A DNA stretch of 64,000 bases from the NCBI GenBank assembly GCA_944391965.1, contig CALXVH010000001.1, forward strand, positions 38,828-102,827, read 5' to 3'. A model generated the notes under the pieces. The model saw nothing but the letters and a program-made list of their open reading frames with translations, was not told the DNA's origin and ran no database searches. A program made the position numbers and the translations under genes. Below, in pieces: positions 1,024 to 45,743 of the stretch. Numbering within the stretch: position 1 is the first letter of the stretch; every line of letters starts with the position of its first letter. The stretch is from an uncultured Clostridia bacterium (GTDB taxonomy: Bacteria; Bacillota; Clostridia; TANB77; CAG-508).

Positions 1024-1101
1024 GAACTTTAAGCCCGTCCCTAAAGTTCAAAAAAGGGATTTAAGGAACGTCCCCAAATCCCTAGGAACGTTCTAAATCC
1101 C
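1024..1101. repeat. Family-1 hairpin repeat, three stacked units
   Basis: Unit 1 is TGAACTTTA-AGCCCGTCCC-TAAAGTTCA (1023-1050). Unit 2 is GGGATTT-AAGGAACGTCCCC-AAATCCC (1056-1082). Unit 3 is TAGGAACGTTCT-AAATCCC (1083-1101). The array ends 7 nt before the ATPase stop codon. Confidence 0.85.
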
Positions 1102-1108
1102 TTTTGAT

Positions 1109-3901
1109 TTATGCTTCGTCTTTTGTTGTATTTATTTTTGATAGTTTGAATATTTCTACAATTACTAATGGTGCTATTATTAATAAAATTGTTTCTATTA
1201 AGTTGCCCATTGGTAAAATTGGTATACTGAATATATGTCTTAATGCTGGTACTAACAATATTATAAGCATTAATGCTGCTGATGCTCCTATTGCTAGCAA
1301 TAACATTTTGTTGTTAAATGGATGTGTTTTAAATACAGATTTTTTGTTATTCCTAATGTTAAATACATGTACTAATTCTGAAAATGCTAATACCATAAAG
1401 GCCATTGTTTGACCAATTTCTACTTTTACTTCTTGATTTTCTACATATTCTGCACCATTTGCTAATGCTTCATCTAAGTTTTCTACTTCTTCAACACCAT
1501 ATAAAGTTCCATCTATTTTTACCATAGTTGGTAAATTCTCTTCTGGTGTTGCAATACCAATTATAAATGCTGCAAGTGTAAGTAAACCAATCATTATTCC
1601 TTGATATACAACTCTAAAACTCATACCTTTTGTAAAAATACCTTTTTGTTTCTTTGGTTTTCGTTTCATTACATCGTCTTCTGCAGGGTCTACTGCTAAT
1701 GCTAATGCTGGAAGTGAATCTGTTACTAAATTAATCCATAATATATGAATTGGAAGTAATACTTCGATTAATCCAATATCTATATTAAATGTGCTTCCAA
1801 GCCAAGGTGTAATTAGAATTGCTAAAAATAGTACTATAATTTCACCAACATTACTAGAAAGTAAGAATTGAATAGCTTTTAATATATTGTCATAAATACG
1901 TCTTCCTTCTTCTACTGATGATACTATTGTTGCAAAATTATCATCAGTTAATATTACATCTGCTGCTTCCTTAGAAACGTCTGTACCTACAATTCCCATT
2001 GCACAACCAATATCTGCTGTTTTTAATGCTGGAGCATCATTTACACCATCACCTGTCATAGCAACAATTTCCCCATTTGCTTGCCATGCTTTTACTATTC
2101 TAACTTTGTGTTCTGGTGATACCCTTGCATAAACTGAATATTTTCTAATATTCTTTGTTAAATCTTCATCTGACATTTCTTCTAGTTCACTACCAGTTAT
2201 AGCTTCATCTTCATTTTCTAATATTCCAAGAGCTTTTGCTATTGCAACAGCTGTAATCTTATGATCACCTGTAATCATTACAGTTTTAATTCCTGCTGTT
2301 TTACATTTTTCTACTGCTACTTTAACTTCTTCTCTTGGTGGATCTATCATTCCAACCATTCCAACAAATATTAAATCATTTTCTATATTTTTCATTTCTT
2401 CATCTGTTGGTTCATGATCTAACTCTTTATATGCCATAGCTAATACTCTTAGAGCATCCTTTGCCATTCCCACATTATATTTATCTATTTCTGCTTTATA
2501 ATTTGCTAAATCATTTTTTATTTCACCATTTAATATATATGAATTACATCTTGCAAGTAATTCATCAATTCCACCTTTTGTATATACAAAATATTTTTCT
2601 CCTACTTTGTTTACTGTAGTCATTAATTTTCTGTCAGAATCAAATGGAATCTCTTTTACTCTTTTTAATTCTAAAACTTCTTTTACGTCAAAATTGATTT
2701 TAAATCCTAAATCTATTAATGCTGTTTCTGTTGGATCTCCTGTTAATTGATTCTCTGCACCAATTTTTGTATCGTTACATAGTGTACAAACTTGCATTAA
2801 TCTATCTAATTCATTGCTGATATCTTTAATATCTGCAACTTCTACTACTTCATTATTTACAAATACTTTTTGAACAGTCATTTTGTTTTGTGTAAGTGTT
2901 CCTGTTTTATCTGAACAAATAACTGTTGCACTTCCTAAAGTTTCTACTGCTGGTAATTTCTTTATGATGGCATTTTTCTTTACCATTCTTTGAACACCTA
3001 TAGCTAAAACTATTGTAGAAACTGCTGCTAAACCTTCTGGAATCGCTGCAACAGCTAAACTAACAGCTGTCATAAACATATCTATTACATCTTTACCATA
3101 CGCAATCCCTATTATAAATATTACTATACATATTGCAAGAGCTGCTATTCCTAATGTTTTTCCTAATTTATTTAACTTTGTTTGAAGTGGTGTTTCTGTT
3201 CCTTCTGTATCACTAATAATTTTAGCAATTTTACCAACTTCTGTATTCATTCCTGTTTCTACTACAATACCTTTTCCTCTTCCATATGTTATAAGTGAAG
3301 AAGAGAAAAGCATATTTGTTCTATCACCAAGACTCACTTTTTCGTCATCTATAGTTTCTGTATTTTTATCTACTGGTACAGACTCACCTGTTAATGATGC
3401 TTCTTGTGACTTTAAGTTCGCACTCTCTACTATTCTTAAGTCTGCTGGTACATAGTCACCTGTATCTAAAACTACAACATCTCCTGGTACTAATTCTCTA
3501 GATTGTACTACTGTTACTTTGCCATTACGCATAACTTTTGATGCATGTGCACTTAATTTTTGAAGTGCTTCTAATGATTTCTCTGCTTTACTTTCTTGTA
3601 CTACTCCAATTATTGCATTAAGTACTACAACTATTAAAATTATAATTGTATCTGTTATTCCTTCGCCTTCTGCAATTCCTACAGCTCCAGATACTATGGC
3701 TGCAATAATTAAAACGATAATCATAAAATCTTTAAATTGTTCTAAAAATTTTACAAATAAAGATTTTTTCTTTTTTTGCTTTAATTCGTTCATGCCATAC
3801 TTTTCATAATTTGCCTTTACTTGTTCTTCTGTTAAGCCTTCCTTAATATTGGTTTGTAATTCTTTTTCTACTTGACTTATTCCTTTGTTAAACCAATTCA
3901 C
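1109..3901 (-). CDS. P2-type cation-transporting ATPase (Ca2+/Mn2+ exporter type, PacL/SERCA-like)
   Basis: 930-aa ORF with a GTG start preceded by AAGGAGAG. Motifs TGES, DKTGTLT and TGDGVNDAPAL are present, with multiple TM helices. Confidence 0.9.
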   Translation of the reverse strand: MNWFNKGISQVEKELQTNIKEGLTEEQVKANYEKYGMNELKQKKKKSLFVKFLEQFKDFMIIVLIIAAIVSGAVGIAEGEGITDTIIILIVVVLNAIIGVVQESKAEKSLEALQKLSAHASKVMRNGKVTVVQSRELVPGDVVVLDTGDYVPADLRIVESANLKSQEASLTGESVPVDKNTETIDDEKVSLGDRTNMLFSSSLITYGRGKGIVVETGMNTEVGKIAKIISDTEGTETPLQTKLNKLGKTLGIAALAICIVIFIIGIAYGKDVIDMFMTAVSLAVAAIPEGLAAVSTIVLAIGVQRMVKKNAIIKKLPAVETLGSATVICSDKTGTLTQNKMTVQKVFVNNEVVEVADIKDISNELDRLMQVCTLCNDTKIGAENQLTGDPTETALIDLGFKINFDVKEVLELKRVKEIPFDSDRKLMTTVNKVGEKYFVYTKGGIDELLARCNSYILNGEIKNDLANYKAEIDKYNVGMAKDALRVLAMAYKELDHEPTDEEMKNIENDLIFVGMVGMIDPPREEVKVAVEKCKTAGIKTVMITGDHKITAVAIAKALGILENEDEAITGSELEEMSDEDLTKNIRKYSVYARVSPEHKVRIVKAWQANGEIVAMTGDGVNDAPALKTADIGCAMGIVGTDVSKEAADVILTDDNFATIVSSVEEGRRIYDNILKAIQFLLSSNVGEIIVLFLAILITPWLGSTFNIDIGLIEVLLPIHILWINLVTDSLPALALAVDPAEDDVMKRKPKKQKGIFTKGMSFRVVYQGIMIGLLTLAAFIIGIATPEENLPTMVKIDGTLYGVEEVENLDEALANGAEYVENQEVKVEIGQTMAFMVLAFSELVHVFNIRNNKKSVFKTHPFNNKMLLLAIGASAALMLIILLVPALRHIFSIPILPMGNLIETILLIIAPLVIVEIFKLSKINTTKDEA

Positions 3902-3928
3902 TATTCATCTCTCCTTTTTTAGTATTAT

Positions 3929-4054
3929 ACACAAAAAGCAAGACTTTAAAAAACTTTTTGTGTTTTTTAAAAGTCTTGCTTACCTAAATTAGGTTACTAA
4001 CCAGAATATTTCGCGACTGTTGATTAGTAGTTCACAAGCTACTCCCTTTTAAAG
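3929..4054 (-). promoter_or_regulatory. Putative yybP-ykoY (Mn2+) riboswitch with intrinsic terminator expression platform
   Basis: The minus-strand RNA reads UUUAAAAG-GGAGUAGC...ACCUAAUUUAGGU-AAGCAAGAC-CUUUUAAA. This matches the conserved GGGGAGUAG and AGCAAGAC blocks and the P1 pairing of the yybP-ykoY class. The 3' P1 strand plus GCAAGAC is also the 5' arm of a 17-18 bp terminator (3938-3979) followed by UUUUUG. It lies directly upstream of a P-type ATPase, a known genomic context for this class. Confidence 0.6.
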
Positions 4055-4061
4055 TAGTTGT

Positions 4062-4090
4062 ATTTTATCACTTAGTAAAAATTTTTTCAA
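4062..4090 (-). promoter_or_regulatory. Sigma-A type promoter for the riboswitch/ATPase transcript
   Basis: On the minus strand: TTGAAA (4085-4090), a 17-nt spacer, then TAAAAT (4062-4067). Confidence 0.5.
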
Positions 4091-4100
4091 TATTTTTTTA

Positions 4101-4787
4101 TTATTTTGCATATAAAATTAATCTTGCTGATCCATTTTGTGAACATGTAGCAAGTGTTATTTCTGGTATTCCACCAGTATCTCTAAACATATAGCTTGTA
4201 TCCTGTTGAGATGTTTCGAACTTATTATATATTGTATATTCTACAGTTACACCATACAAGTCTGTAATATACACTTTATCTCCTATATTTAAATTTTTAT
4301 TTTTTGAAAAAAATAGTCTATTTAAGTAATTATGTCCTGCAATTACTGTATTTCCTGGTTCGTTTGGACCTGGTCCATATTCTACACATACACCTTTTTC
4401 TAAGGCTTGTTTTGATAATGTAGCTATTATTGGATATTTTATACCTGTTTTTGGAATTCTTATATATCCACACACATCATAATTATAATATTTTCCTACA
4501 GATTTTTTTGTTTTTGAACTTCTTGCTGATTTTATTTTATTAGATTTATTATTAGCTTCACTATTAGCTTGATTTGAAGTTACTTCCCCATTGTCACTTA
4601 TTATATTTCCATCAATATCTCCAATTTCATTTGTAAATTCTGCTATATATTCATCTGAATCATCATTTATGATTTTAGCAGAAATAAATCTATACGCTAC
4701 ATATCCTGCTATACATAGTAATATTATTAATAAAATTATAAAAAATACATTTAGAACTTTTTTATAAGCTTCTTCTGCGGTAGACAT
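4101..4787 (-). CDS. Sortase family transpeptidase (paralog 1)
   Basis: 228 aa with an N-terminal TM anchor. It has the catalytic His context VIAGHNY, the TLATC active-site motif and a C-terminal Arg. Confidence 0.85.
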   Translation of the reverse strand: MSTAEEAYKKVLNVFFIILLIILLCIAGYVAYRFISAKIINDDSDEYIAEFTNEIGDIDGNIISDNGEVTSNQANSEANNKSNKIKSARSSKTKKSVGKYYNYDVCGYIRIPKTGIKYPIIATLSKQALEKGVCVEYGPGPNEPGNTVIAGHNYLNRLFFSKNKNLNIGDKVYITDLYGVTVEYTIYNKFETSQQDTSYMFRDTGGIPEITLATCSQNGSARLILYAK

Positions 4788-4848
4788 TTATACCTCCTAT
4801 TAATTAGTTTTAATATTTATATAAAACTTTACATACAATAACAAAAAA

Positions 4849-4877
4849 GGGATTTTAAGGAACGTCCCCAAAATCCC
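4849..4877 (+). repeat. Family-1 hairpin repeat, single canonical unit
   Basis: GGGATTTT-AAGGAACGTCCCC-AAAATCCC. It lies 7 nt from the sortase stop at 4885, and the minus-strand RNA follows with a U-run. Confidence 0.85.
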
Positions 4878-4884
4878 TTTTAGA

Positions 4885-5553
4885 TTATTCTGCAAGTCTT
4901 GCCCAAATTATAATTCTTGCTCTACTGTCATCTGTACAAGTTGTTAAAGATATTTCTGGTTTTCCTTTAGTATCTCTTTGCATATAATCTGCATCTTCTG
5001 GAGTTGTTTCATATTTATTATATACTTCATATCTTAATCTTGTTCCAGAATTATCTGTAATATAAATTGTATCTCCATTTTCTAATTTATAATTATTTGA
5101 AAAAAATTGTCCGTTTCTGTAATTATGTCCTGCAATTACTGTGTTTCCAATTTGGTTTGGTCCTGGTCCATATTGCATTACTACGGCTGTGTTCATTGCT
5201 CTTGTACCCATTTGTTTTAATATTGGAAGATCTACATTAGTTTTTGGTATTTCTATTGCACCTACAACATCAAATCCTTTAAATTTTTTTGTTTCTTGAG
5301 CACCATCTCCGCTTGCGTTTGTAACTGCATTAACATCCAATAAAGAATTAAAGTCTCCAGTAATATTATTTCCTTCTAATGGTTGTATTCCTAATGAATT
5401 AGTATATTCATCCATAAAAGCTTGTGTATCTGCATCTAAGAAATATTTCGTGTACATACTATATCCTAAAAATGCTAATAAGCCAACAATTCCAATTATT
5501 ACAATAATTAATAAAACAGTTAATACTTTACTATATTTACTATCAACAAACAT
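4885..5553 (-). CDS. Sortase family transpeptidase (paralog 2)
   Basis: 222 aa with a TM anchor, VIAGHNY and an SLTTC motif. The architecture matches the neighbouring sortase. Confidence 0.85.
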   Translation of the reverse strand: MFVDSKYSKVLTVLLIIVIIGIVGLLAFLGYSMYTKYFLDADTQAFMDEYTNSLGIQPLEGNNITGDFNSLLDVNAVTNASGDGAQETKKFKGFDVVGAIEIPKTNVDLPILKQMGTRAMNTAVVMQYGPGPNQIGNTVIAGHNYRNGQFFSNNYKLENGDTIYITDNSGTRLRYEVYNKYETTPEDADYMQRDTKGKPEISLTTCTDDSRARIIIWARLAE

Positions 5554-5641
5554 AATTTTACCTCCAATTACTTCTCTAAAGTATATTATAACATATTTTA
5601 AATTGTTTTCATATACTTTATGTAAATTTTTTCTTTTGTTT

Positions 5642-5986: not shown

Positions 5987-6001
5987 TTTATTACCTCCAT
6001 A

Positions 6002-6074
6002 GGGAATTGGGGACGGTGCTTTTTTCCCTTTCATTTTTTATAAAGTAGGGATTTAAGGAACGTCCCCGAATCCC
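6002..6074. repeat. Family-1 hairpin repeats, inverted pair
   Basis: GGGAATT-GGGGACGGTGC-TTTTTTCCC (6002-6028) has an inverted, degenerate core. GGGATTT-AAGGAACGTCCCC-GAATCCC (6048-6074) is canonical. The pair lies between the alaS-like stop and the HIT gene start. Confidence 0.75.
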
Positions 6075-6082
6075 TTTTTGAA

Positions 6083-7834: not shown

Positions 7835-7989
7835 TTTCATTCTCCCTCTCATTTGCGCTTATTTTACGCATTTAGATTATATTATATTATGGTATAAATT
7901 GCAAGATTTATCATATTTTTATCTTTTAGTGTATAATTTAATTTTTTCTAGAAATACTAATTTTAGACAAAATTAAAAGGAGGAAAATT

Positions 7990-8545: not shown

Positions 8546-8584
8546 GTTTAAAGCATCTAGCATTCTTAGTTAGATGCTTATTTT

Positions 8585-11919: not shown

Positions 11920-12061
11920 ATAATCACCTTCTTATATAGTATATGTTTTTGGCTATAAAATGTTAAAAGCACTTTGTTTTTTACAAAGTGCTGATATATA
12001 TAAACGAAGAGGGCTAATTCTTCTAATTTATAACTATTATTTTAGAATAATTAATAACTTG

Positions 12062-13804: not shown

Positions 13805-13870
13805 TAGAATTTAGGGACGTTCCTTTTTTTCTACCTAAATTATGGATTCGAAGAACGCCCCCAAATTCTA
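13805..13870. repeat. Family-1 repeat, degenerate composite with different outer arms
   Basis: TAGAATTT-AGGGACGTTCC...GAAGAACGCCCCC-AAATTCTA. It has one inverted and one forward degenerate core, enclosed by TAGAATTT/AAATTCTA arms. It lies 4 nt from the stop at 13875. Confidence 0.65.
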
Positions 13871-15672: not shown

Positions 15673-15699
15673 GGGATTTGAGGAACGTCCCCAAATCCC
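15673..15699 (+). repeat. Family-1 hairpin repeat, canonical unit
   Basis: GGGATTT-GAGGAACGTCCCC-AAATCCC, 11 nt from the pyk stop. The minus-strand RNA follows with UAUUUUUG. Confidence 0.85.
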
Positions 15700-18492: not shown

Positions 18493-18566
18493 CGGGATTT
18501 GGGGACGTTCCTAAAATCCCGAAAAGGGAAAAAAGGAACGTCCCCAAATCACAGGAACGTCCCAAA
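18493..18566. repeat. Family-1 repeats, three cores (one inverted, two forward)
   Basis: CGGGATTT-GGGGACGTTCC-TAAAATCCCG (18493-18521), GGGAAAAAAGGAACGTCCCCAAATC (18526-18550) and AGGAACGTCCC (18553-18563). The locus lies 19 nt from the hisS stop. Confidence 0.85.
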
Positions 18567-27196: not shown

Positions 27197-29044
27197 ATGT
27201 GTGGAATTGTTGGATTTGTAAATTACAAAAAAGATGTAAAAAATCCCATTTCTATTCTTAATAAAATGAACAATTCTCTTACTAATAGAGGGCCTGATGA
27301 AGAAGGAAAATATATTTCTTCCCCTGCTTATTTAGCTCATAAAAGATTAATTGTTATTGATCCTGTAGGTGGAAAACAGCCTATGATTACTACATATGAT
27401 GAAAATGAATATTCTATCGTTTATAATGGGCAAATATATAACACTAAAGAATTAAAAAATACTCTTATTCAAAAAGGATTCGAATTTAACACAACTTCTG
27501 ATACAGAAGTCTTACTAAAAGCATTTATCTTTTACGGATATGATGTTGTAAAACATCTTAATGGAATTTTTGCTTTTGCAATATGGAATAAGAAAAAAGA
27601 AGAACTATTTTTGGCAAGAGATCATTTTGGAATAAAGCCTTTGTTTTATACTTTAAATAATGATAATTTAGTTTTCGCTTCTGAAATAAAGGCATTGTTT
27701 GAATTTCCTGGCGTAGAAAAAATTGTTGACCAGAATGGAATTTGTGAACTTTTTGGAGTTGGTCCTGCTCATACCGCTGGTACTACTGTATTTAAAGATA
27801 TATATGAATTAAAGCCTGCTAATTTTGCAATATTTAATAAGTATGGATTATTTGTTCATAGATATTGGAAATTTATAAGTAAACCACATGTAGATTCTTT
27901 TGAAGAGACTTGTATGAAAGTTAAATATTTATTAGAAGATAGTATAAAAAGACAGTTAGTATCTGATGTACCACTTTGCACATTTTTATCTGGTGGTTTA
28001 GATTCTAGCATAATTACTGCATATGCTAGTGACTATTGTAATAAAAATGGGTTACCTCCCCTTAATACATTTTCGGTAGATTATGTAGATAATGATAAAA
28101 ATTTTGTTAAGAGTGATTTCCAGCCTAATTCTGATAATTATTATATAAATTTAATGGTTGAGAAATATAAAACTAACCACACAAATATTGTGTTAGATAC
28201 ACCAGATTTAGCAAAATATTTAGAAGATGCTATGATTGCACGAGACACTCCAGGTATGGCAGATGTTGACTCTTCTTTACTACTATTCTGTAAAAATGTT
28301 AAACCATATGCTACTGTTTCTTTAAGTGGTGAATGTGCTGATGAAATATTTGGTGGATACCCTTGGTTCTTTAGAGAAGATGCATTAAATAGTGGAACTT
28401 TCCCTTGGTCTATTGCACTTTCTGAAAGACAGCATCTTTTGAATACTAATATAGCTTCTAAAATTAATTTAAAAGATTATATTGATTTTAGATATAATGA
28501 AAGTTTGGCTGATGTAGAAATTTTAGATATTGATTCTAAAGAAACTGCCGAGAAAAGAAAAATCTCACATTTGACATTAAACTGGTTTATGCAAACTTTA
28601 TTAGACAGATCTGATAGATGTTCTATGTATAATGGTTTTGAACTTCGTGTTCCTTTCTGCGATTATAGATTAGCAGAATATGTTTGGAATATTCCTTGGG
28701 AAATAAAAGCATATAAAGGTCGTGAAAAAGGATTATTAAGATATATAATGAAAGATGTATTGCCTGCAGAAATTGTAGATAGGAAAAAATCTCCTTATCC
28801 TAAAACACATAATCCAACATATTTAAAAGCTGTAAAAGATATGCTTACAGATATTATGAATGATAAAAATGCTCCTATTAATAATTTATTAAATAGAGAT
28901 TATATATTAGAAATTTTGGAAACTAATGGTTCTGCTTTTACAAGGCCTTGGTTTGGCCAATTGATGACAGGTCCACAATTAATGGCGTATTTATGTCAAG
29001 TTGACATGTGGCTTGAGAAGTATGAGCCTAGGATTGAAATATAA
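27197..29044 (+). CDS. asnB: Asparagine synthase (glutamine-hydrolysing)
   Basis: 615 aa with an N-terminal MCGI nucleophile and the PP-loop SGGLDSS. Confidence 0.9.
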   Translation: MCGIVGFVNYKKDVKNPISILNKMNNSLTNRGPDEEGKYISSPAYLAHKRLIVIDPVGGKQPMITTYDENEYSIVYNGQIYNTKELKNTLIQKGFEFNTTSDTEVLLKAFIFYGYDVVKHLNGIFAFAIWNKKKEELFLARDHFGIKPLFYTLNNDNLVFASEIKALFEFPGVEKIVDQNGICELFGVGPAHTAGTTVFKDIYELKPANFAIFNKYGLFVHRYWKFISKPHVDSFEETCMKVKYLLEDSIKRQLVSDVPLCTFLSGGLDSSIITAYASDYCNKNGLPPLNTFSVDYVDNDKNFVKSDFQPNSDNYYINLMVEKYKTNHTNIVLDTPDLAKYLEDAMIARDTPGMADVDSSLLLFCKNVKPYATVSLSGECADEIFGGYPWFFREDALNSGTFPWSIALSERQHLLNTNIASKINLKDYIDFRYNESLADVEILDIDSKETAEKRKISHLTLNWFMQTLLDRSDRCSMYNGFELRVPFCDYRLAEYVWNIPWEIKAYKGREKGLLRYIMKDVLPAEIVDRKKSPYPKTHNPTYLKAVKDMLTDIMNDKNAPINNLLNRDYILEILETNGSAFTRPWFGQLMTGPQLMAYLCQVDMWLEKYEPRIEI

Positions 29045-34676: not shown

Positions 34677-34703
34677 GGGATTTTAGGAACGTCCCCAAAT
34701 CCC
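34677..34703 (+). repeat. Family-1 hairpin repeat, canonical unit, operon-internal
   Basis: GGGATTTT-AGGAACGTCCCC-AAATCCC. It lies 8 nt after the ybaK-like stop and immediately upstream of the rdgB SD (AGGAGAAG). No U-tract follows. Confidence 0.85.
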
Positions 34704-35747: not shown

Positions 35748-35820
35748 GGGGATTTAGGGACGTTCCTAAAATCCCTCTTTATATAATTTAAACAAGTAAA
35801 AAAGAACGTCCCCTAAGCCC
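35748..35820. repeat. Family-1 repeats: inverted canonical unit plus forward partial core
   Basis: GGGGATTT-AGGGACGTTCC-TAAAATCCC (35748-35775) directly abuts the thioesterase SD (TAGGAGG). AGAACGTCCCCTAAGCCC (35802-35820) touches the NUDIX stop codon. Confidence 0.8.
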
Positions 35821-36254: not shown

Positions 36255-36312
36255 CTTTTATCCTTTCTTGTATATTTATATCATATTTCATATAAAAAAT
36301 CTATTAATTTAC

Positions 36313-36351
36313 AAAAGTTTTGCGACGTACAATGTACGCCACAAAACTTTT
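36313..36351 (-). terminator. Long GC-containing hairpin overlapping the stop of the 166-aa orphan gene
   Basis: Outer arms AAAAGTTTTG/CAAAACTTTT enclose inner arms CGTACA/TGTACG. On the minus strand a U-rich stretch follows. Confidence 0.65.
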
Positions 36352-36850
36352 ACATAAGATAAACTTTGTCCACTCCTTTTAAGAGTGTTTTGTTAGAAAG
36401 TTGCTTTGCAAGCTCGTCATTCTTTTTCAGCTCCTGTTTAGAGACAATCAAAATTGTCTGATAAGCTAGTTCTTTTTCCATAGCTACTTCAAGGAAGCCT
36501 AACCGAGCATCCAGACTATAAAAATAGCGTTCAACAAGAGCTGTCCCTAGCTTTAAAGCCTTTTTTACTCTTGTATAAAATTCGTTATTGACTTTCTGTT
36601 GGAAGTCATTCATATCTGTAACCGTTTCTTGCAATTCATCTCGGATTACTGAATAAGTAATTCTTCTCACCTTATCTTTTTCTGCAAATTTTCTGATTTT
36701 TTTATTATCAGATAATCCGATAAGCAGAATTAACGTCCGATGTTTAGCAAGTTTTTTAAAATCCGGCTTTTTATTACAAAGCTTTCCCTCCTTTACTGAT
36801 ACTGGAAACATGTTCGCATACCCAGTTTGGGTAAATTGTTTATTTCCCAT
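36350..36850 (-). CDS. Hypothetical protein, modestly G+C-elevated orphan
   Basis: 166 aa with a strong SD (GGAGG). My hand count is 166 G+C in 480 nt (about 35%). I recognise no family. Confidence 0.6.
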   Translation of the reverse strand: MGNKQFTQTGYANMFPVSVKEGKLCNKKPDFKKLAKHRTLILLIGLSDNKKIRKFAEKDKVRRITYSVIRDELQETVTDMNDFQQKVNNEFYTRVKKALKLGTALVERYFYSLDARLGFLEVAMEKELAYQTILIVSKQELKKNDELAKQLSNKTLLKGVDKVYLM

Positions 36851-37690: not shown

Positions 37691-40303
37691 CTATTTCATC
37701 TTTTCTTTTATTTTCATTAAAGTATTTAGTGCATCTATAGGCGTTAATGTATTTAAATCAATCTTATCAAGTTCTTGTGCTATTTCTGCTAATTTGTAAT
37801 TATATAAATCTAGTTGACCTGCTTGAACTTGTTTATTTTCTTTTTCCATTTTCTTACTACCTAAAATACTTTTTCTTTCTAAGCTTCTTAATATTTCATT
37901 TGCTCTTTTTAATACTTCTTTTGGAACTCCTGCAAGCCTTGCAACATGAACACCATAACTTTCATCTGTTCCGCCTCTTACAATCTTTCTTAAAAAGATT
38001 ACATCTTCACCTTTTTCCTTAACTGCTATAGAATAATTTTTTACACCTTCTAGTTTATCTTCTAATTCTATAAGTTCATGGTAATGTGTTGCAAATAATG
38101 TTTTAGCTCCACATTTTGTTTTATCAGAAATATATTCAGCAACTGCCCATGCAATTGATAATCCATCATATGTTGATGTTCCTCTTCCAATTTCATCTAA
38201 TATTACTAGACTGTTTTTAGTAGCTTCTTTTAAGATATCTGCAACTTCCATCATTTCAACCATGAATGTACTTTGCCCCATACTTAGATCATCTGATGCA
38301 CCAACTCTTGTAAATATTTTATCTACAACACCTATATGTGCTTCTGATGCTGGAACAAAACTTCCTATTTGAGCCATTAAAGTAATTAGTGCAACTTGTC
38401 TCATATATGTAGATTTACCAGCCATATTAGGGCCAGTTATAATTGATAATCTGTTTTCATCATTATCCATATATGTATCATTATCTATAAAACTTCCTGT
38501 TGGAAGCATTTTTTCGATTACTGGATGTCTTCCTTCTTTTATTTCTATTTTTCCAGCATTGTCAACTATTGGCATACAGTAATTCATATCTTCTGCAACA
38601 GTTGCAAATGAAGCTAACACATCTAGCGTTGCAATTATCATTGCAGATTTTTGAAGTCTTTTTACATTTTTAGCAATTTCTTGTCTTATCTCTGTAAATG
38701 CTTCATATTCCAAATTGATAACTTTGTCTTCGGCTCCTAAAATTTGATTTTCTAATTCTTTTAACTCTTCTGTTATATATCTCTCACAATTTGTTAATGT
38801 TTGTTTTCTTATATATCTATCTGGAACTTGTGGTAAATTTGATTTTGTTACTTCTATATAATAACCAAATACTTTATTAAATCCAACTTTTAAATTTTTA
38901 ATTCCTGTTTTTTCTTTTTCTTTTTCTTCTTATTTAATTAACCAATTCTTACCTTCTGTTGTAGCAGTTTTTAATTTATCAATTTCTTCATTATATCCTA
39001 GTTTTATTAGTCCACCTTCTTTTACTGTCATTGGTGGATCTTCTACTATTGATTTTTCAATTAGCTCATAAATATCTTTTAGTTCATCTAAGTTATTATA
39101 AAGTTCTTGTAACATAGTTGAACTTGTATTTTGTAATACAGCTTTTACTTCTGGCAATTTTGATAAAGAATTTTTTAAAGATATCATATCCCTACCATTT
39201 GCATTACCATATGATATTTTTCCTGCTAGTCTTTCAATATCATAAACCTTTTTTAGGCTTTCTATAATATCTCCTCTAAGCATTACATTTTCTTTTAGTT
39301 CTTTTACTGCATTTAATCTCTTATTTATTTCGTTAACATCTATTAATGGATCATTTATCCATCTTCTTAAATGTCTTCCTCCCATTGATGTTGATGTTTT
39401 ATCTAACACCCACAAAAGAGTACCTTTTTTGCTTTTATCTCTCATTTTCTCTGTAAGTTCTAGGTTTCTTCTTGCATTAATATCTAAAGACATATATCTA
39501 GTTGTGTTATACATAATTATTTTGTTAATATGTTCTAAGCTTGTTTTTTGTGTTTGTTTTAGATACTCTACTAATGCATTTATACTTGCAACAGAAAAAA
39601 GTCTTTTATCTATATCTTTTATAGGATTGTCATCATTATCAACTAAATTGTAGTTTTCTACTATTGTATTTATGTCTTCTGAAAAGAATTTATCATTAAA
39701 TCTTGTAAAATATATTTCAAATCTTTCTTTTATTTTGCTTATCTCTTCTGTGCTATCATACATCATGCTATTTACAACTAATTCCGCTGGTGAATATCTT
39801 GCAATTTCATCTAATACTAAAGGAAAATTATTGTTTTCTTTTATTTCTGTACTATAAAAATCTCCTGTAGTTACATCACATACAGCAATTCCATAATAGA
39901 TTCCTTTTTTTACAATTGACATGATATAATTGTTTTTCTTTTCTTCTAACATATTAGATTCTATTACTGTACCTGGTGTAACAACACGAATAACCCCTCT
40001 TTTTACAATTCCTTTTGCTGTTTTTGGATCTTCTAATTGTTCACATATTGCAACTTTATACCCTTTAGCAATTAGTTTTGAAATATAAATTTCTGCTGCA
40101 TGATGTGGCACACCACACATTGGTGCTCTTTCTGCCTGTCCACAATCTTTGCCAGTTAAAGTTAGTTCTAGTTCTCTTGATACTGTTATAGCATCATCAA
40201 AGAACATTTCGTAAAAATCTCCTAATCTATAAAAAAGTATACAGTCTTTATATTCTTCTTTTGTTTCAAGATACCTTTGCATCATTGGTGAATATTCTGC
40301 CAT
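37691..40303 (-). pseudogene. mutS: DNA mismatch repair protein MutS with a single in-frame TAA at codon 458
   Basis: The 457-aa N-terminal ORF (GDFYEMF) ends ...NWLIK-TAA at 38930-38932. The same frame continues [28 protein letters not shown]... into the 340-aa C-terminal ORF, which has [21 protein letters not shown] and ATHYHEL. The total is 871 codons, the length of a normal MutS. Confidence 0.85.
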
Positions 40304-40426
40304 TTGTATATTCCTTACCTTTCTATTTTAGTCCTAATTCTTCTAACTTGTCTTCTGTTAATTTCTCTATTTTGTATTTTTTCCGTTAAGGTTATAATAT
40401 GCTTCTAATTTCATAATTTACCTTTT

Positions 40427-41323
40427 CTATTTTCTTGAATCATCATCTTGTTCTTCTCTTCCTGTAAGTTTTTCATATGCCTCCACAGTCTTTCCAGCTC
40501 TTCTTATTGTACTAATAGACACTTTTAATTTCTCTGCAGCCTCTTTTTGAGTAGTTCCTAATTCTTTTACCTCTGCTAGTAAACTTTTTGCTTTTTCATA
40601 TTTTTTCTCAGCTTCTGTTTTTTGACTACTTATTATTACAGGTCCTTCATCATAATTTTCTAGTGTACTTTGGATTAATATCCTTTCTAATTGTTCAAAT
40701 ACAGATGCTTTATCTTGTGAATTTCCTTTTTGCATTTTTCTTCTTGACAATTCTTTTGCTATTTCAAATATTGTTTTATATTCTTCATTCTTTTCAAGTT
40801 TAGCTAATTCTCTACTTATTGTTCTAGGTGGTATACCATACTTTCCAGCCATATCTGTTTGGCTTGCTTCTTCTGCAATCATTTCTATAAATAGAGCTTT
40901 AAAATTTATATGTGAATAGTCGGGATGCTTTCTAGCTTCATATTCTATATATGATCTTTTTAATTCATCATCATTTGAATCATTAACATAAGCCACAATA
41001 TTTTCTTTAAATGTTTGTTGATCTATGTCTTCACCAGTTCTTAAATATAATTCTCTTGCATCATTTAAAGTTTTTAGTTCTCCAGCTAAAAGTCTCTCTA
41101 CTATTTTCCCTAACCTTGTCTCATCAATATCTTTCTTTTGTAACTCACTCTTGTTTTTGGCTAATATTTTTTCTAATTTTTCTCTTTGTTCTGAATTTTC
41201 TGGAAATCTTTCTTCACACATTTCTCTAAACTTTTTTCTATCGATTCTATAAATTTTTTCGCATTCTCTTACTGATTTTCCATCTAGAACTGCAAGAAAC
41301 ATTTTTTCAAAATTATCTTCCAT
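40427..41323 (-). CDS. Hypothetical protein with three HTH-like segments
   Basis: 298 aa from the ATG at 41323 (GGAGG SD, 1 nt after the miaB stop). Three HTH-like stretches are present: SVRECEKIYRIDRKKF, SQTDMAGKYGIPPRTISREL and TQKEAAEKLKVSISTIRRA. Confidence 0.6.
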   Translation of the reverse strand: MEDNFEKMFLAVLDGKSVRECEKIYRIDRKKFREMCEERFPENSEQREKLEKILAKNKSELQKKDIDETRLGKIVERLLAGELKTLNDARELYLRTGEDIDQQTFKENIVAYVNDSNDDELKRSYIEYEARKHPDYSHINFKALFIEMIAEEASQTDMAGKYGIPPRTISRELAKLEKNEEYKTIFEIAKELSRRKMQKGNSQDKASVFEQLERILIQSTLENYDEGPVIISSQKTEAEKKYEKAKSLLAEVKELGTTQKEAAEKLKVSISTIRRAGKTVEAYEKLTGREEQDDDSRK

Positions 41324-41324
41324 T

Positions 41325-42740
41325 CTAACCTCCAATTAAACTTCCTTTCAAATACCACATATGTTCAGAAACAATTTTTAAATCTATTATTTCATTTATT
41401 AAATCTTTATCTCCTTCAAATATAACAACCTTATTGCTATCAGTTCTTCCTGTTAGCATATTTGGATTGTTTTTACTTGTTCCTTCTACTAAAACTTTTT
41501 GAATTGTTCCAACATATTTTTGGTTATTTTCTTCAATTTGACTTTCTACTAATTCTTTTAATCTGTCAAATCTTTTGTGTTTTATTTCTTCTGGAACTTG
41601 GTTTGGCATTTTATCTCCTGGAGTTCCAACTCTTCTTGAGTATATAAACATATATACTTGTTCGAATTTTACTTTTCTAACTACATCTAATGTATCTTCA
41701 AATTCTTCATCTGTTTCTCCTGGAAAACCTACTATAATATCTGTTGATAATGTTAAATTTGGTATTTTATTTTTCATTTTTTCTACTAAATTTAGATATT
41801 GCTCTTTAGTATATTTCCTATTCATCTCTTTTAAGACTTTAGAATTTCCAGATTGTAATGGTAAATGTATTAGTTTACATACTTTATCACAATCTGCTAT
41901 TGCTTCTATTACATCTTCTGTAAAATCTTTTGGATGTGGAGAAACAAATCTAATTCTTTCAATTCCATCAATTTTATTTATTGCACTTAATAATGTTGCA
42001 AAAGAGTTTACACCTTCATATGCTTCAAATTCTATATTTTTCTCTTTTTCTACTCTTAGATATGAATTAACATTTTGACCTAATAAAGTAATTTCTTTAT
42101 ATCCTTCTTTTGCAAGTTCTTTTACTTCATTAATAATATCTTTTGGCATTCTGCTTCTTTCTCTTCCACGTACATATGGCACTATACAATATGTACAAAA
42201 ATTGTTGCATCCATTCATTATTGTTACAGAAGCTTTTATATTGCTATCTCTTTTTATTGGTAAACCTTCGAAAATTTCACCATCTATATCTATAACATCT
42301 TTTACTTTCTCTCTTGTTTTTAGTGCTTTAAATAGATCTTCTGGAAATCTATATAATGTATGTGTTCCAAATACTACATCTACAAATGGATAGCTTTGTT
42401 TTATTTTATCTGTAATGTGTTTTTCTTGCATCATACAACCACCAATAGCTATAATTGTTCCATTAGCTTCTTTTATTCTTTTTAATTCTCCTAGTTTTCC
42501 AAAAAGTTTATCTTCTGCATTTTCTCTTACACAACATGTATTAAATAAAGCTATATCTGAATCTTCAAAATTCTCTGTTCTCGTATATCCCATTTCTTCT
42601 AACATTCCACATAACTTTTCAGAATCATTTTCGTTTAATTGACACCCCATTGTTAGAATGCAATATTTTAAGTTTTTATTATTTTTATTTATTTCTTTTA
42701 TTTCATCTATATATTTTCTTTGCTCTTCTACTTTTTCCAC
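41325..42740 (-). CDS. miaB: tRNA-i6A37 methylthiotransferase MiaB
   Basis: 471 aa with the radical-SAM motif CNNFCTYC, an N-terminal UPF0004 Cys triad and a C-terminal TRAM domain. GTG start with an AGGAGG SD. Confidence 0.9.
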   Translation of the reverse strand: MEKVEEQRKYIDEIKEINKNNKNLKYCILTMGCQLNENDSEKLCGMLEEMGYTRTENFEDSDIALFNTCCVRENAEDKLFGKLGELKRIKEANGTIIAIGGCMMQEKHITDKIKQSYPFVDVVFGTHTLYRFPEDLFKALKTREKVKDVIDIDGEIFEGLPIKRDSNIKASVTIMNGCNNFCTYCIVPYVRGRERSRMPKDIINEVKELAKEGYKEITLLGQNVNSYLRVEKEKNIEFEAYEGVNSFATLLSAINKIDGIERIRFVSPHPKDFTEDVIEAIADCDKVCKLIHLPLQSGNSKVLKEMNRKYTKEQYLNLVEKMKNKIPNLTLSTDIIVGFPGETDEEFEDTLDVVRKVKFEQVYMFIYSRRVGTPGDKMPNQVPEEIKHKRFDRLKELVESQIEENNQKYVGTIQKVLVEGTSKNNPNMLTGRTDSNKVVIFEGDKDLINEIIDLKIVSEHMWYLKGSLIGG

Positions 42741-42837
42741 GTTAAATCCTCCTATTGCCCCTATATTCTATATTATTTTCTAAGTTTTTTCAAGTGATTT
42801 TGTGTTCAAGTTTATCCATAAGTTAACCTTTCCATAT

Positions 42838-42881
42838 AAAAACAAACTGTGGGCTGAAAACCTTAATTTTTTCCCCCACAG
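42838..42881 (-). terminator. Orphan terminator-like hairpin about 130 nt downstream of the rpmE terminator
   Basis: On the minus strand, CTGTGGG...CCCACAG is followed by TTTGTTTTT. No ORF lies between it and the rpmE terminator. Confidence 0.5.
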
Positions 42882-43008
42882 TTATACATAATTTTTACTT
42901 ATTTATTTTTACCTAAAAATGAATTTACCACATTTGCAAATCACTTTACAATCGCAAAGATATATGTGCCTTAACTTATTATATAATTTCCTATATAATA
43001 TATAGTAA

Positions 43009-43041
43009 GAAAAAAGAAAATTATAACGCTTTATAATTTTC
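43009..43041 (-). terminator. rpmE intrinsic terminator
   Basis: On the minus strand, GAAAATTATAA-AGCG-TTATAATTTTC is followed by TTTTTTCT. It begins 10 nt after the rpmE stop. Confidence 0.75.
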
Positions 43042-43050
43042 TTATATATC

Positions 43051-43251
43051 TTATTGAATTCCATATTTCTTTTTAAATTTATCTGCTCTACCACCTGTTG
43101 TATCTTTTCTTAAATTACCTGTCCAGAATGGATGACATTTTGAGCAAACATCTACTTTTATAGATTCTTTTGTTGAGTTTGTTTCTATTACATTACCACA
43201 AGCACATGTAATTGTTGCAGCAGTATATTTTGGATGTATTCCTTCTTTCAT
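43051..43251 (-). CDS. rpmE: 50S ribosomal protein L31 (Zn-ribbon type A)
   Basis: 66 aa starting MKEGIHPKY, with CxC...CxxC cysteines. Confidence 0.95.
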
Positions 43252-43341
43252 TTATGTTCACCTCTTCCTTTTCTTCGTAAAATGCTGTATATTATCATAA
43301 CATATATTTCATTAATTTTCAAGCCCTAATTTCTTTTTTAT

Positions 43342-43503
43342 TTAATTTACTTCATTTGTTTGTTCATGATCTAGAATGTATTGTCCAGATGTTTCTAGCT
43401 CTTCTTTTAAAGATGTTTTATTTACTAGTTTAAAAGTTATATTAAACAAACAAGCTATTACTAATATTATTAAACCTATTCTTTTCCAATATTTAGCTAG
43501 CAT
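43342..43503 (-). CDS. Small hypothetical membrane protein (53 aa), not in the ORF track
   Basis: ATG at 43503 preceded by AAGGAGAGG. It encodes MLAKYWKRIGLIILVIACLFNITFKL... with one TM helix and a TAA stop at 43342-43344. Confidence 0.45.
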   Translation of the reverse strand: MLAKYWKRIGLIILVIACLFNITFKLVNKTSLKEELETSGQYILDHEQTNEVN

Positions 43504-43675
43504 TTGGACCTCTCCTTCTCTCTTAAACTCATATTTCTATTATACTATATTTTATTTTTTTGTCAATATTTTTAACGTTTATCATATGTTTTGGTATTTT
43601 TTTGCTCATTTCGTGTAAAAATATTATAAAATATTTTATTGTGCCTATTATTTTTATTTGAGAGGATTGAATTTT

Positions 43676-44362
43676 ATGAAAAAGAAAATGCTACTATTTT
43701 TTATTATTTTACTTACTACAATTTGTTTTTCTGGATGTAGTAAAGAAGAAAAAACTCAAACAGAAGTTAATACTGTCGAAGTTAATAGAACATCGATTGA
43801 TATTAGTGATGTTTCTTTAAATGAAATATCAAATAATACAATCTTTAATAATACTTCTTCTACTAGCACTACTTCTAATTCCACTAAATCAACAAATACT
43901 AATAAATCTGAAGAATTGCTAGCACAATTTTCTACTAGAATATACTCTACAGATTCTGCAAGACAAAATAATTTAGAAATAACATCTAACAAATTAAATG
44001 GAACTATTGTAAAACCTAATGAAACATTTTCTTTTACAAAAACAATTGGACCTTCTACCTCTGCTAAAGGATATGAGGAAGCAGATATATATGATTCAAA
44101 TGGAAATAAAATTAAAGGTTATGGTGGTGGAAACTGTCAGGTAAGTTCTACCTTATACAATGCTGTCCAAAAGGTTTCATCTCTTAAAGTTGTAGAAAGA
44201 CACGAACACAGTAACACTGTTCCATATGTAAAAGAAGGTCATGATGCTGCAGTAGCATATGGAAGTGTTGATTTTAAATTTAAAAACACCAATAATTATA
44301 GTATAAAAATTTTAGCTCAAGCCTCAAAAAAATACGTTGTAGTTAAATTAATTAAAATTTAA
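43676..44362 (+). CDS. VanW-family lipoprotein
   Basis: Lipobox FSGC after the signal peptide, and the VanW motif GGGNCQVSSTLYNAV. The start is set at the ATG after GAGAGGA; the ORF track starts at an upstream TTG. Confidence 0.8.
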   Translation: MKKKMLLFFIILLTTICFSGCSKEEKTQTEVNTVEVNRTSIDISDVSLNEISNNTIFNNTSSTSTTSNSTKSTNTNKSEELLAQFSTRIYSTDSARQNNLEITSNKLNGTIVKPNETFSFTKTIGPSTSAKGYEEADIYDSNGNKIKGYGGGNCQVSSTLYNAVQKVSSLKVVERHEHSNTVPYVKEGHDAAVAYGSVDFKFKNTNNYSIKILAQASKKYVVVKLIKI

Positions 44363-44413
44363 TTCATATATTTTCTCCTTTAGCATATATTTTAGGAAAA
44401 GGAGGGGATTAAA

Positions 44414-45637
44414 ATAAGAAAATTTATTTATAAACTTTTAATTTCTATAATTATTTTTAGTTTAATATTAACCCCAATTTCTTGTTTTGCATATACTGAT
44501 TCTTCATATGTTTGGTCTTCACCAGAAGTCTTAACTAGTGTTATTGCTGATGAACAATCACAATTAGCGGAAAATAGCTTAAATCTCACATGTGGAAGCG
44601 CTATATTAATTGAACAATCAACTGGAAAAATACTATATGAACATAATGTACATGAACAATTACGTCCTGCAAGTGTTACTAAAGTTATGACAATTCTTTT
44701 AATTATGGAAGCAATAGATTCTGGTAGATTAAGTTATACAGACCAAATACCCTGTAGTGAAAATGCAAGCTCAATGGGTGGTTCACAAATATGGCTTGAT
44801 ACAAAAGAAACTTTAAGTGTAGACGAAATGTTAAAAGCCATATGTGTTGTTTCTGCAAATGATTGTACTGTTGCAATGGCGGAATATTTGGCTGGTTCTG
44901 AAGAAAACTTTGTTGCACAAATGAATGCAAAAGCAAAGGAACTTGGAATGAATGATACTACTTTTAAAAATTGTCATGGTATAGATGAAGATGGTCATGT
45001 ATCTTCTAGTTATGATATTGCGCTTATGTCTCGCGAACTTTTAGAAAAACACCCTGATATAAAAAAATATACTACAATATACATGGATTCTTTACGTGAT
45101 GGAAAATCTGAATTAGTCAATACTAATAAATTAGTCAGAAATTATAGAGGAGCTACTGGATTAAAAACAGGTTCTACTTCTCTTGCACTATATAATCTAT
45201 CAGCATCTGCAACTCGTGATAGTTTATCCTTAATTGCTGTAATAATGAAGGCACCTACTACTAAAGATAGATTTGCTGAAGCAACTAAATTATTAGATTA
45301 TGGCTTTGCAAATTATTCTTATAAAACTTTTGCTCAGAAAGGTGATACTATTAAAGAAGTTCCATTATCTAAAGGGGTTTCTTCATCCGTTTGCGCAGTA
45401 CTTGCTAATGATGCAGGAATTCTTCTAAAAAAAGGTGAAGAAAGTAATATTGAGCAAAATATTAATCTTCCTGATGAAATATCTGCACCTATAAATGAAG
45501 GTGATAAACTAGGTGAAATTTCTTATTCATTAAATGGTGAAACAATTGCAACTATTGATATAGTCGCAAAAAACAGTGTAGATAAAATAGATTTACCTCA
45601 TATGTTACAATATGTATTTAAATCTTGGATTAATTAA
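44414..45637 (+). CDS. D-alanyl-D-alanine carboxypeptidase (PBP5/S11 family) with a non-canonical ATA (or ATT) start
   Basis: The frame is open from 44396. The signal peptide IRKFIYKLLISIIIFSLILTPISCFA and the catalytic SVTK (SxxK) lie upstream of the first ATG (44687). AAGGAGG sits 8 nt before the ATA at 44414. No ATG, GTG or TTG is available in that interval. Confidence 0.75.
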   Translation: MRKFIYKLLISIIIFSLILTPISCFAYTDSSYVWSSPEVLTSVIADEQSQLAENSLNLTCGSAILIEQSTGKILYEHNVHEQLRPASVTKVMTILLIMEAIDSGRLSYTDQIPCSENASSMGGSQIWLDTKETLSVDEMLKAICVVSANDCTVAMAEYLAGSEENFVAQMNAKAKELGMNDTTFKNCHGIDEDGHVSSSYDIALMSRELLEKHPDIKKYTTIYMDSLRDGKSELVNTNKLVRNYRGATGLKTGSTSLALYNLSASATRDSLSLIAVIMKAPTTKDRFAEATKLLDYGFANYSYKTFAQKGDTIKEVPLSKGVSSSVCAVLANDAGILLKKGEESNIEQNINLPDEISAPINEGDKLGEISYSLNGETIATIDIVAKNSVDKIDLPHMLQYVFKSWIN

Positions 45638-45697
45638 AATTTTATATAAGAAAATAGCCTTAAGTTATATATTTCAACTTGCCATATATTAAAGAAA

Positions 45698-45743
45698 GGG
45701 ATTTGAGGAACGTCCCCAAATCCCTAAGGAACACCCAAATCCC
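45698..45743 (+). repeat. Family-1 repeat: canonical unit plus degenerate half unit
   Basis: GGGATTT-GAGGAACGTCCCC-AAATCCC (45698-45724), then TAAGGAACACCC-AAATCCC (45725-45743). The last base is the first base of the fbp stop codon. Confidence 0.85.

Follow-up and report, generated by a model that had tools for sequence, protein, structure and literature searches.

The sequence under study is a 64-kb window of contig CALXVH010000001.1 from an uncultured Clostridia bacterium, and all plain coordinates below refer to this window. It has a G+C content of about 28% and a negative GC skew throughout, and 54 of its 61 called genes are encoded on the minus strand; no tRNA genes were found in it. 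The minus-strand genes include those for a P-type ATPase, a sortase, pyruvate kinase (pyk), a NUDIX protein and fructose-1,6-bisphosphatase, as well as alaS and hisS. Close to the ends of these and other minus-strand genes lies a small hairpin, here called the unit, which recurs at nine loci. This 27-base hairpin is a real, previously undescribed dispersed repeat family, and the present analysis concerns its fold, its distribution and a transposase gene of sibling genomes that looks like its partner. All nine loci are intergenic and are found 0-19 nt from the stop codons of minus-strand genes. The initial annotation, made from the letters of the window alone, had placed nine loci at these same positions, 0-20 nt from such stops, and was accurate on both counts. 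The core of the unit, GGAACGTCCCC, occurs 12 times in the window with at most one mismatch, compared to 0.02 occurrences expected from shuffles, in line with the annotation's view that chance recurrence is negligible. Allowing two mismatches gives 15 matches, one of which (at 28394) looks chance-like. The total of about 17 cores that had been annotated is reached when the two-mismatch cores are counted together with two half-units (1083-1101 and 45725-45743) and a hairpin with a second type of arms (1024-1049). The individual copies are:

1024-1049, minus strand: hairpin of the second arm type, GAACTTTAGGGACGGGCTTAAAGTTC; the apical GGGACG is kept, the arms differ
1056-1082, minus strand: full unit GGGATTTGGGGACGTTCCTTAAATCCC with TTTTTT behind it, 26 nt past the P-type ATPase stop (gene 1109-3901); conserved at three orthologous loci
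1083-1101, minus strand: 5' half-unit GGGATTTAGAACGTTCCTA, forming a tandem with the full unit at 1056-1082; the count varies by species, and CAAEUE has one extra
4849-4877, minus strand: full unit whose arms are longer by one pair (GGGATTTT...AAAATCCC), with a T-run, after the sortase gene (4885-5553)
6002-6028, plus strand: degenerate inverted partner GGGAATTGGGGACGGTGCTTTTTTCCC, missing in the JAHAKD ortholog
6048-6074, minus strand: full unit GGGATTCGGGGACGTTCCTTAAATCCC, 8 nt past the alaS stop (6083)
13805-13870, both strands: REPIN-like inverted doublet with the arm variant TAGAATTT/AAATTCTA; cores at 13813-13823 (plus) and 13852-13862 (minus)
15673-15699, minus strand: full unit with a U-run, 11 nt past the pyruvate kinase stop; a strong promoter-like site comes next (15621-15593)
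18493-18521, plus strand: inverted full unit CGGGATTTGGGGACGTTCCTAAAATCCCG, the distal arm of a composite after hisS
18526-18550, minus strand: variant-B forward unit with TTTTTTCCC in place of the 3' arm; forms a long palindrome with the inverted unit at 18493-18521
18553-18566, minus strand: truncated extra core TGGGACGTTCC, closest to the hisS stop (18586)
34677-34703, minus strand: full unit in a gap of 50 nt, lacking a U-run; the next gene's ribosome-binding site follows directly
35748-35775, plus strand: inverted full unit GGGGATTTAGGGACGTTCCTAAAATCCC, adjoining the ribosome-binding site of the next gene
35798-35820, minus strand: degenerate forward half GGGCTTAGGGGACGTTCTTTTTT, immediately next to the NUDIX gene's stop; in the USBY ortholog one canonical unit stands in place of the doublet
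45698-45724, minus strand: full unit in the convergent gap after the fructose-1,6-bisphosphatase gene (45743-47695)
45725-45743, minus strand: degenerate 5' half-unit GGGATTTGGGTGTTCCTTA, forming a tandem with the full unit at 45698-45724

No copy was found in the window past 45743, which agrees with the annotated absence from the last 18 kb, but this is local variation only, and ordinary terminators are used there. The enrichment outside the window that the annotation had proposed to look for was found as well. A scan with an exact 25-base pattern, using one genome per species, recovered at least 96 matching stretches in at least eight species of metagenome-assembled genomes (MAGs), all from the gut and named Clostridium sp. 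CAG:354, UMGS1570, HGM13682 and similar. The recovered stretches of these eight sibling species contain 191 cores in 738 kb, or about 2.5 per 10 kb. Arms of the type GGGATT...AATCCC never surround another core in the 800 kb of related sequence covered. Intergenic positions account for 186 of 203 cores, and the 17 cores scored as lying in genes are complete or variant units inside crude calls of open reading frames (ORFs). The end of a gene on the same strand precedes 120 cores, at a median distance of 28 nt between stop and core, and 57 are in the other configuration. An Rfam scan of the window gave no matches at gathering thresholds and, at E ≤ 0.05, only a T-box and none at the units. A literature search with the core string returned only unrelated papers, which leaves standing the earlier statement that the consensus matches no recognised named element.

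Fold, arrangement and orthologous sites of the unit

On the transcribed (minus) strand the unit is an imperfect palindrome of 27-31 nt with the consensus [A/C]GGGATTT-GGGGACGTTCC-T[T/A/C]AAATCCC[T/G]. Its RNA, GGGAUUU-GG-GGA-CGU-UCC-UU-AAAUCCC, folds into a continuous stem of 12-13 bp that includes two G-U pairs and is capped by a CGU triloop. The 11-nt core, which had initially been taken for the loop, thus turns out to be mostly upper stem around a loop of only 3 nt. On the opposite strand the G-U positions become A/C mismatches, which open an internal loop, and the folding energy of 53-nt test windows is about -16 kcal/mol, compared to about -23 kcal/mol for the transcribed one, which makes the hairpin directional as RNA. 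This G-U asymmetry is kept in most copies.

Three layouts recur. Units are found singly, as long palindromes in which a "variant B" forward unit with the 3' arm TTTTTTCCC is followed by an inverted unit, as in REPINs or BIMEs, and as tandem 5' half-units, (GGGATTTGGGGACGTTCCT)n, in which one 3' arm closes the array. The occurrence of both orientations and of tandem and inverted arrays, already seen in the initial annotation, is evident at 1056-1101, 13805-13870, 18493-18566, 35748-35820 and 45698-45743, and some copies, for example that at 34677-34703, do lack a U-tract. The second arm type, which has the same apex (GAACTTTAGGGACGGGCTTAAAGTTC), is also present in the loci L001/L060 and L153. 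In L098 (the 3' region of hisS) and in L021:1180-1215, pieces of the arms are expanded in a microsatellite-like manner, as CCCGAATCCCGAATTCCGAATTCCGAATCACG and as three copies of GGGATTC; units therefore evolve by slippage, too. At the 3' end of alaS, L110 has the hairpin GGGATTATATAAAATCC where other species hold a full unit, and this hairpin looks like a core-less unit.

Several properties of the units are those of intrinsic terminators. In a terminator scan of the minus strand between 1 and 20 kb, the four highest-listed sites are all family hairpins, three of them canonical units. Strong promoter-like sites (TTTACA-17-TATAAT) lie just downstream of two family loci. Counted by eye, roughly nine terminator slots of the window are filled by family hairpins and about ten by ordinary hairpins. 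Among 145 distinct full units, 64 have at least six T within the next 9 nt and 25 are preceded by an A-run, and the 93 single units in co-directional gaps comprise 67 forward and 26 inverted ones. These features suggest that family copies would double as intrinsic terminators. The unit at 34677-34703, with no U-run behind it and a gap of only 50 nt around it, is unlikely to be a strong one, and so is the inverted unit at 35748-35775, which directly adjoins the next ribosome-binding site. The initial annotation had proposed a repeat instead of terminators. Its first half stands, as the family is of the repetitive extragenic palindromic (REP) type; its second half does not, because the units, by their fold, their U-runs, the scan and the slots they occupy, also look like genuine intrinsic terminators. 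"Terminator" and "REP" are thus not alternatives. Single units also show an excess of GGGGACG on the G-rich strand (87:35), which fits a preference for the lagging-strand template but is confounded with transcription.

Comparison of orthologous sites shows how the family behaves among related genomes. Regions of sibling species that overlap the window share 91-96% nucleotide identity with it. The pyruvate kinase of the window is encoded without change on the 1.33-Mb contig CAXVQW010004566.1 (GCA_964261755.1), and identical proteins recur in many assemblies. In loci fetched by means of pyk, and thus not chosen for repeats, we counted 28 cores in 114 kb from six close species and a single one in about 230 kb from twelve further relatives. 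Directly after pyk a unit is found in all six close species, in one of them with a compensatory lengthening of both arms by one pair, whereas relatives whose pyruvate kinase is 95-62% identical have unrelated AT-rich hairpin terminators with a T-run. After hisS the close species have arrays of two to four units of variable number and layout. Most sisters have ordinary terminators there, of five different kinds, and in two none was seen; the promoter region further downstream is conserved throughout. Sister species lack the entire 66-nt doublet at 13805-13870 and retain only the promoter downstream of it. The distribution is not strictly clade-limited, since the more distant L109 has a GGTCC-variant unit after alaS. 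In 133 orthologous comparisons presence is mostly shared and copy number often different, and a few sites show clean presence/absence or replacement. No target-site duplication was found at the presence/absence junctions examined. The annotation had suggested looking in relatives for presence/absence polymorphism, and such differences exist, in copy number, in half-unit arrays and as doublets versus singlets. Beside the repeat locus at 35748-35820 lies a variable gene (36350-36850, 166 amino acids, no Pfam match), and window positions 36288-36850 are an alignment gap relative to L033 and L084 of two siblings.

The ordinary terminator at 11920-12061 provides an internal comparison. It stays an ordinary terminator in all species, but its stem and loop vary, which upholds the annotated view of one repeat family and not nine independent terminators. 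It also bears on the possibility that the units are ordinary intrinsic terminators which are alike by descent and by selection for a stable hairpin, with no mobile origin and a merely coincidental transposase nearby. That the units occupy terminator slots, fold as terminators and mostly sit at orthologous sites across species is what this explanation would lead one to expect. However, about 190 non-orthologous sites carry the same 27 nt, the terminator at 11920-12061 changes loop and stem freely among the same species, and sister species have unrelated terminators at unit sites. Moreover, inverted doublets, half-unit arrays and U-less units occur, and the same type of hairpin brackets a Y1 transposase gene at 51-60 of 73 loci (see below). 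Taken together, we regard a purely terminator-based origin as highly improbable.

Conservation has also to be considered in the light of a possible host factor. The unit might be a binding or processing site for an RNA- or DNA-binding protein, such as an RNase or a 3'-end binding protein, or an uptake sequence, and either would be compatible with a REP origin. In 49 pairs of single units at orthologous sites, from loci fetched by exact match, the unit is 96-100% identical and the 5' flank 50-65%, and the retained G-U asymmetry likewise speaks for such a site. This conservation estimate is ascertainment-biased, however, and no candidate factor was identified. An uptake sequence would be expected in genes and free of arms, whereas the cores are largely intergenic and the arms always present. 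The uptake-sequence-like tag considered in the initial annotation is not supported either, as copies are essentially never coding and never arm-free. Finally, the arms change freely across lineages, with only GGGAC constant and always beside a Y1 gene. A host-factor or uptake site is therefore an unlikely explanation.

A Y1 transposase gene bracketed by units

As the initial annotation had stated, no gene similar to those of REP-associated tyrosine transposases (RAYTs) or IS200 is present in the window, but a partner exists in the sibling genomes CAKNPW and CAMMLJ. It was reached by tblastn searches with IS608, IS200 and Escherichia coli RAYT sequences, of which the IS200 and IS608 queries gave no matches and the RAYT query a single weak one (E = 0.11) that led to the gene. 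In CAKNPW the gene corresponds to the ORF L017:273-1058; the protein has 256-261 amino acids. It matches Pfam Y1_Tnp above cutoff (E = 4.6e-10), and its best NCBIfam match is REP_Tyr_transpos (NF047646) with 66.7 bits, compared to 17.4 bits for the NCBIfam IS200 model, which has a cutoff of 55. The gene is bracketed by units in CAKNPW (L017/L115), with a forward unit about 155 nt upstream of the start and an inverted unit 13 nt past the stop. At the orthologous site of CAMMLJ (L117) it is likewise located between two inverted units. The two RAYT-like proteins encoded at this site, L115:273-1055 and L117:4001-4768, are only 60% identical, against about 88% for the DNA on their flanks as compared in a third sibling, which points to replacement of the allele or to very rapid evolution.

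All of 47 homologs match PF01797 and share the invariant motifs AYCIMDNHxH and Y-I-H-x-N-P, which contain the HUH histidines H61 and H63 as well as Y121, N125 and P126. A search of the PDB with the single protein sequence gave no match, and a profile of the 47 homologs had one significant match, the E. coli TnpA-REP structure 4er8_A (E = 7.5e-6). The AlphaFold (AF2) model (pLDDT 83) has the same entry at rank 1 in Foldseek (E = 6e-7, TM 0.72, target-normalised), with the ISDra2, IS608 and IS200 transposases ranking behind it. Past the Y1 domain the protein continues for about 110 residues, which are helical in the model and give a weak profile match to sigma-28 region 4; subsets of the 47 members match HTH_23, HTH_28 or Sigma70_r4 in this C-terminal extension.

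The gene context, holB-PSP1-ferredoxin-gene-108 amino acid ORF-PFOR, is the same in ten assemblies, and the same ferredoxin neighbour is found in 11 loci, including lineages in which the protein is only 40-60% identical. No second copy of the Y1 gene was seen in any locus fetched. At this ferredoxin site the cassette of unit, gene and unit, about 1.05 kb long, is an indel (L117:3804-4851 in CAMMLJ versus L195:3160-3270 in JAHAKD). CAMMLJ and CAKNPW have it, JAHAKD and the sister species CATZPY do not, and in JAHAKD an ordinary hairpin terminator is found instead.

Such an indel could mean that the units are solo ends or miniature, PATE- or MITE-like derivatives of an autonomous IS200/IS605-type element, in which the Y1 gene and two hairpins are mobile together. 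The 60% identity between the alleles of two siblings and a fold that also resembles the IS608 and ISDra2 transposases point in the same direction. On the other hand, the gene keeps one chromosomal position beside the same ferredoxin in lineages with 40-60% identical proteins, and none of the loci showed a second copy. The IS200 model scores far below its cutoff (17 bits against 55) while the RAYT model reaches 67 bits, and TnpA-REP is the best match in both sequence and structure. The ends of IS608 are co-oriented. The two hairpins beside the gene studied here have opposite orientations, as they do in REPtrons. We therefore think it improbable that the units derive from an element of the IS200/IS605 type.

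The association of the gene with such hairpins extends well beyond the siblings. The species collection contains 313 relatives of the protein and the protein collection 561, nearly all of them from uncultured Clostridia. For 73 homolog loci both flanks were available, and in 60 of these an inverted repeat of at least 12 nt is common to the two flanks, compared to 3 for the control region; 51 of the 60 flank-shared inverted repeats contain GGAC[GA]. This test was used in place of an earlier one, a hairpin around GGAC, whose control was too lax (66% versus 36%) and contaminated by true dispersed copies. The arms are lineage-specific (GGGATTT/AAATCCC, TGCCA/TGGCA, AAACTATT/AATAGTTT, GAGACAA/TTGTCTC, CTGTTTTTT/AAAAAACAG and others), and an apical (T/A)GGGGAC(G/A) is retained across all arm types. 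In 25 hand-picked lineage representatives GGGAC is invariant, and compensatory changes are seen at all seven arm pairs. In this set 80% of cells are paired, compared to 46% after shuffling and 38-56% with a slid partner, and none of 500 shuffles reaches the observed value. Copies with a lineage's own arms are also found kilobases away from the gene in many homolog loci. The initial annotation had called the loop the best-conserved part of the unit. At the level of the superfamily this remark on the apex holds, because GGGAC is kept throughout while the arms covary; within the window family, in contrast, the apex is self-complementary and mostly part of the stem.

Other elements of the window

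A T-box leader is found at 59310-59503 on the minus strand, upstream of the threonyl-tRNA synthetase gene (57192-59135). It scores 59.7 bits with Rfam RF00230, below the gathering score of 93 (E = 1.8e-10). Between it and the start of this gene, thrS, lies a copy of a second dispersed element of about 75-120 nt (59162-59287, minus strand), and another copy is located at 48545-48640 (minus strand), upstream of a gene for an HD-domain protein. This element of 5' leaders is also present in L003, L010 (two copies), L031, L059, L066, L081, L111 and Ca. Merdicola. It contains two GCGAAGC-type hairpins (...GATTGCGAAGCAATC...TGGCGAAGCCAC...), has compensatory changes at 5 of 26 predicted pairs and has no Rfam match. 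Non-orthologous copies that match better are 84-93% identical, and the weakest reaches 76%. Furthermore, the gaps at 38714-38929 and 40304-40426 are coding-like although no ORF was called; on reading alone, they may be frameshifted or pseudogenised segments similar to mutS.

Relation to known systems and meaning of the family

The defining feature of canonical REPs is a GT[AG]G foot, which the RAYT reads (PMC6006769, PMC3733652). The family shares much with the REP, BIME and REPIN elements of E. coli, Pseudomonas and Stenotrophomonas: these, too, are imperfect palindromes of 20-40 nt that are extragenic, mostly downstream of genes and arranged as singles, inverted doublets and clusters, with a Y1 gene, present there as a single copy, bracketed by copies. 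The roles in termination and mRNA stability that have been reported for them match the position and fold seen here. However, neither foot of the unit shows GTAG or GTGG (the 5' consensus is T-[A/C]-GGGATTT), the conserved motif is apical, and the host is a low-GC member of the Bacillota. In an alignment with the TnpA-REP structure 4ER8, IWQPRFWEH corresponds to VFrdRfksq, so that the Trp-Gln tied to GTAG recognition appears to be missing (the residue numbering is unverified). We therefore did not file the family as a canonical, GTAG-tagged REP, because the GT[AG]G foot is absent and the Trp-Gln is apparently not kept.

A second type of RAYT-like gene is closer. TIRYTs, or TIRtrons, are flanked by inverted repeats sharing GGGGWSAS, and some have given rise to moderately abundant dispersed families in which repeats occur as singles, dimers and clusters (PMC3733652). 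Quentin et al. equate TIRYTs with subclass 2.1 of the TnpA-Y1 proteins, which corresponds to Group 1 of Bertels; class 2 has the signature Y---NP, subclass 2.1 proteins carry helix-turn-helix (HTH) C-termini, and REP-like secondary structures were not found beside their genes (PMC6006769). Group 1 has been noted in Clostridia, and its flanking 16-mers occur only about 12 times per replicon (PMC5581495). A literature search for RAYT together with Clostridium or Bacillota gave nothing beyond these three papers. Common to TIRYTs and the system described here are a Y1 gene between inverted repeats that lack GTAG but have a G-rich motif (GGGGAC[G/A]N here, GGGGWSAS there) and a long protein with a C-terminal HTH. 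Compared with GGGGWSAS, the window family (GGGGACGT) matches six of eight positions and has G instead of A at position 7, and its relatives GGGGACAG and GGGGACAC match fully. In contrast to the published TIRYT examples consulted, which name no Clostridium or Firmicutes, the family belongs to a Bacillota lineage that does not appear in these papers, and its repeat is a compact hairpin of 27 nt that carries the motif apically, is densely distributed and is located in terminator slots. Judged by these sequence features, the TIRYT or subclass 2.1 type appears to be the one that the family resembles most closely.

Other small elements fit less well. The transposases of IS200/IS605 elements such as IS608 and ISDra2 share the HUH/Y1 fold and the recognition of imperfect DNA hairpins (PMC6006769), but the gene found here is not multi-copy in the loci seen, has the Y---NP signature of class 2 and stays below the cutoff of the IS200 model, and the hairpins are dispersed without the gene. 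The uptake sequences that occur as pairs in terminators of Neisseria (DUS) and Haemophilus (USS) and miniature inverted-repeat transposable elements (MITEs) such as Correia, BOX and RUP are likewise short conserved sequences in intergenic hairpins near gene ends. The family differs from DUS and USS in having no copies in coding regions and none without arms, and from these MITEs in its size, which is far below theirs, and in the lack of a structure with terminal inverted repeats and target-site duplication. An assignment as a MITE (70-300 bp, terminal inverted repeats, target-site duplication) was rejected, as the units measure 27 nt and no duplication was found at the junctions examined. attC sites and CRISPR repeats were dismissed on anatomy alone. 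To our knowledge, work on REP/RAYT systems has dealt almost exclusively with Proteobacteria.

What we observe is a directional hairpin family in terminator slots with lineage-restricted amplification, ongoing rearrangement of its arrays and a cognate-looking, bracketed Y1/HUH gene; bracketing on the same principle extends over dozens of lineages. We favour, with a probability of about three in four, the explanation that these are the parts of a non-canonical REP/RAYT system of the TIRYT or subclass 2.1 type in low-GC gut Clostridia, with copies that serve as terminators. Responsible for the spread of the units, and for their continuing rearrangement, would be a RAYT-like HUH/Y1 transposase, apparently single-copy, with a C-terminal HTH. 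Its substrate would be the single-stranded DNA form of the hairpin, in which it would read the apical GGGAC[G/A] together with the stem instead of a GTAG foot. By analogy to TnpA-REP and IS608 (PMC6006769), binding, cleavage and rejoining of the single-stranded hairpin could seed new copies and doublets. Copies just past stop codons may then act at the RNA level, the forward hairpin, often with a U-run, being an intrinsic terminator or a stabiliser of the 3' end. In this manner the family would have taken over about half of the terminator slots of the window, and a benefit in termination or stabilisation, suggested by structure and position, would explain why copies were retained where ancestral terminators stood.

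A number of points weigh against the proposed REP/RAYT system. The canonical GTAG foot is lacking, and the score of the protein with the RAYT model NF047646 (66.7) is below the cutoff of 80. A clear U-run follows only about 44% of the full units, and some units lie inside tight operon gaps (34677, 35748). Transcription-linked and replication-linked orientation are inseparable, with one informative single unit, in a co-directional gap between lagging-strand genes. The sequences used for covariation were hand-picked from flanking repeats, and the contrast in conservation between unit and flank is inflated because its loci were fetched by exact match. Most copies are shared at orthologous sites, which gives little sign of recent transposition, and no target-site signature was found. 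The transposase gene is lacking in the window, and a pattern-limited search saw it in two of the eight repeat-rich species, among the matches listed. JAHAKD has units, but its ferredoxin site holds an ordinary terminator and no gene; conversely, in the sister CALXPV the gene is flanked by units, but the 21 kb surrounding pyk contain none. Repeat abundance thus does not closely track the presence of the gene.

A broader claim is that HTH-bearing RAYT-like transposases have cognate REPs across many uncultured Clostridia, with an apical GGGAC[G/A] and covarying arms instead of a GTAG foot. In one clade of gut bacteria with small genomes, such REPs would have reached an extrapolated few hundred copies, replaced about half of the ancestral terminators and persisted after loss of the gene. 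For this claim as a whole we see the chances as about even.

If the proposed system is real, the largest RAYT group (Group 1 or subclass 2.1), so far without a convincing REP partner, would gain an abundant one in the Bacillota. The apical GGGAC[G/A] would be its candidate recognition element, possibly read by the extra HTH domain. In practice, the units are a ready marker of the clade in metagenomes and probably account for breaks in contigs and for breakpoints in alignments of its MAGs. For the biology of the organism, the family would represent a selfish or domesticated repeat that is taking over terminator function in a streamlined gut bacterium.

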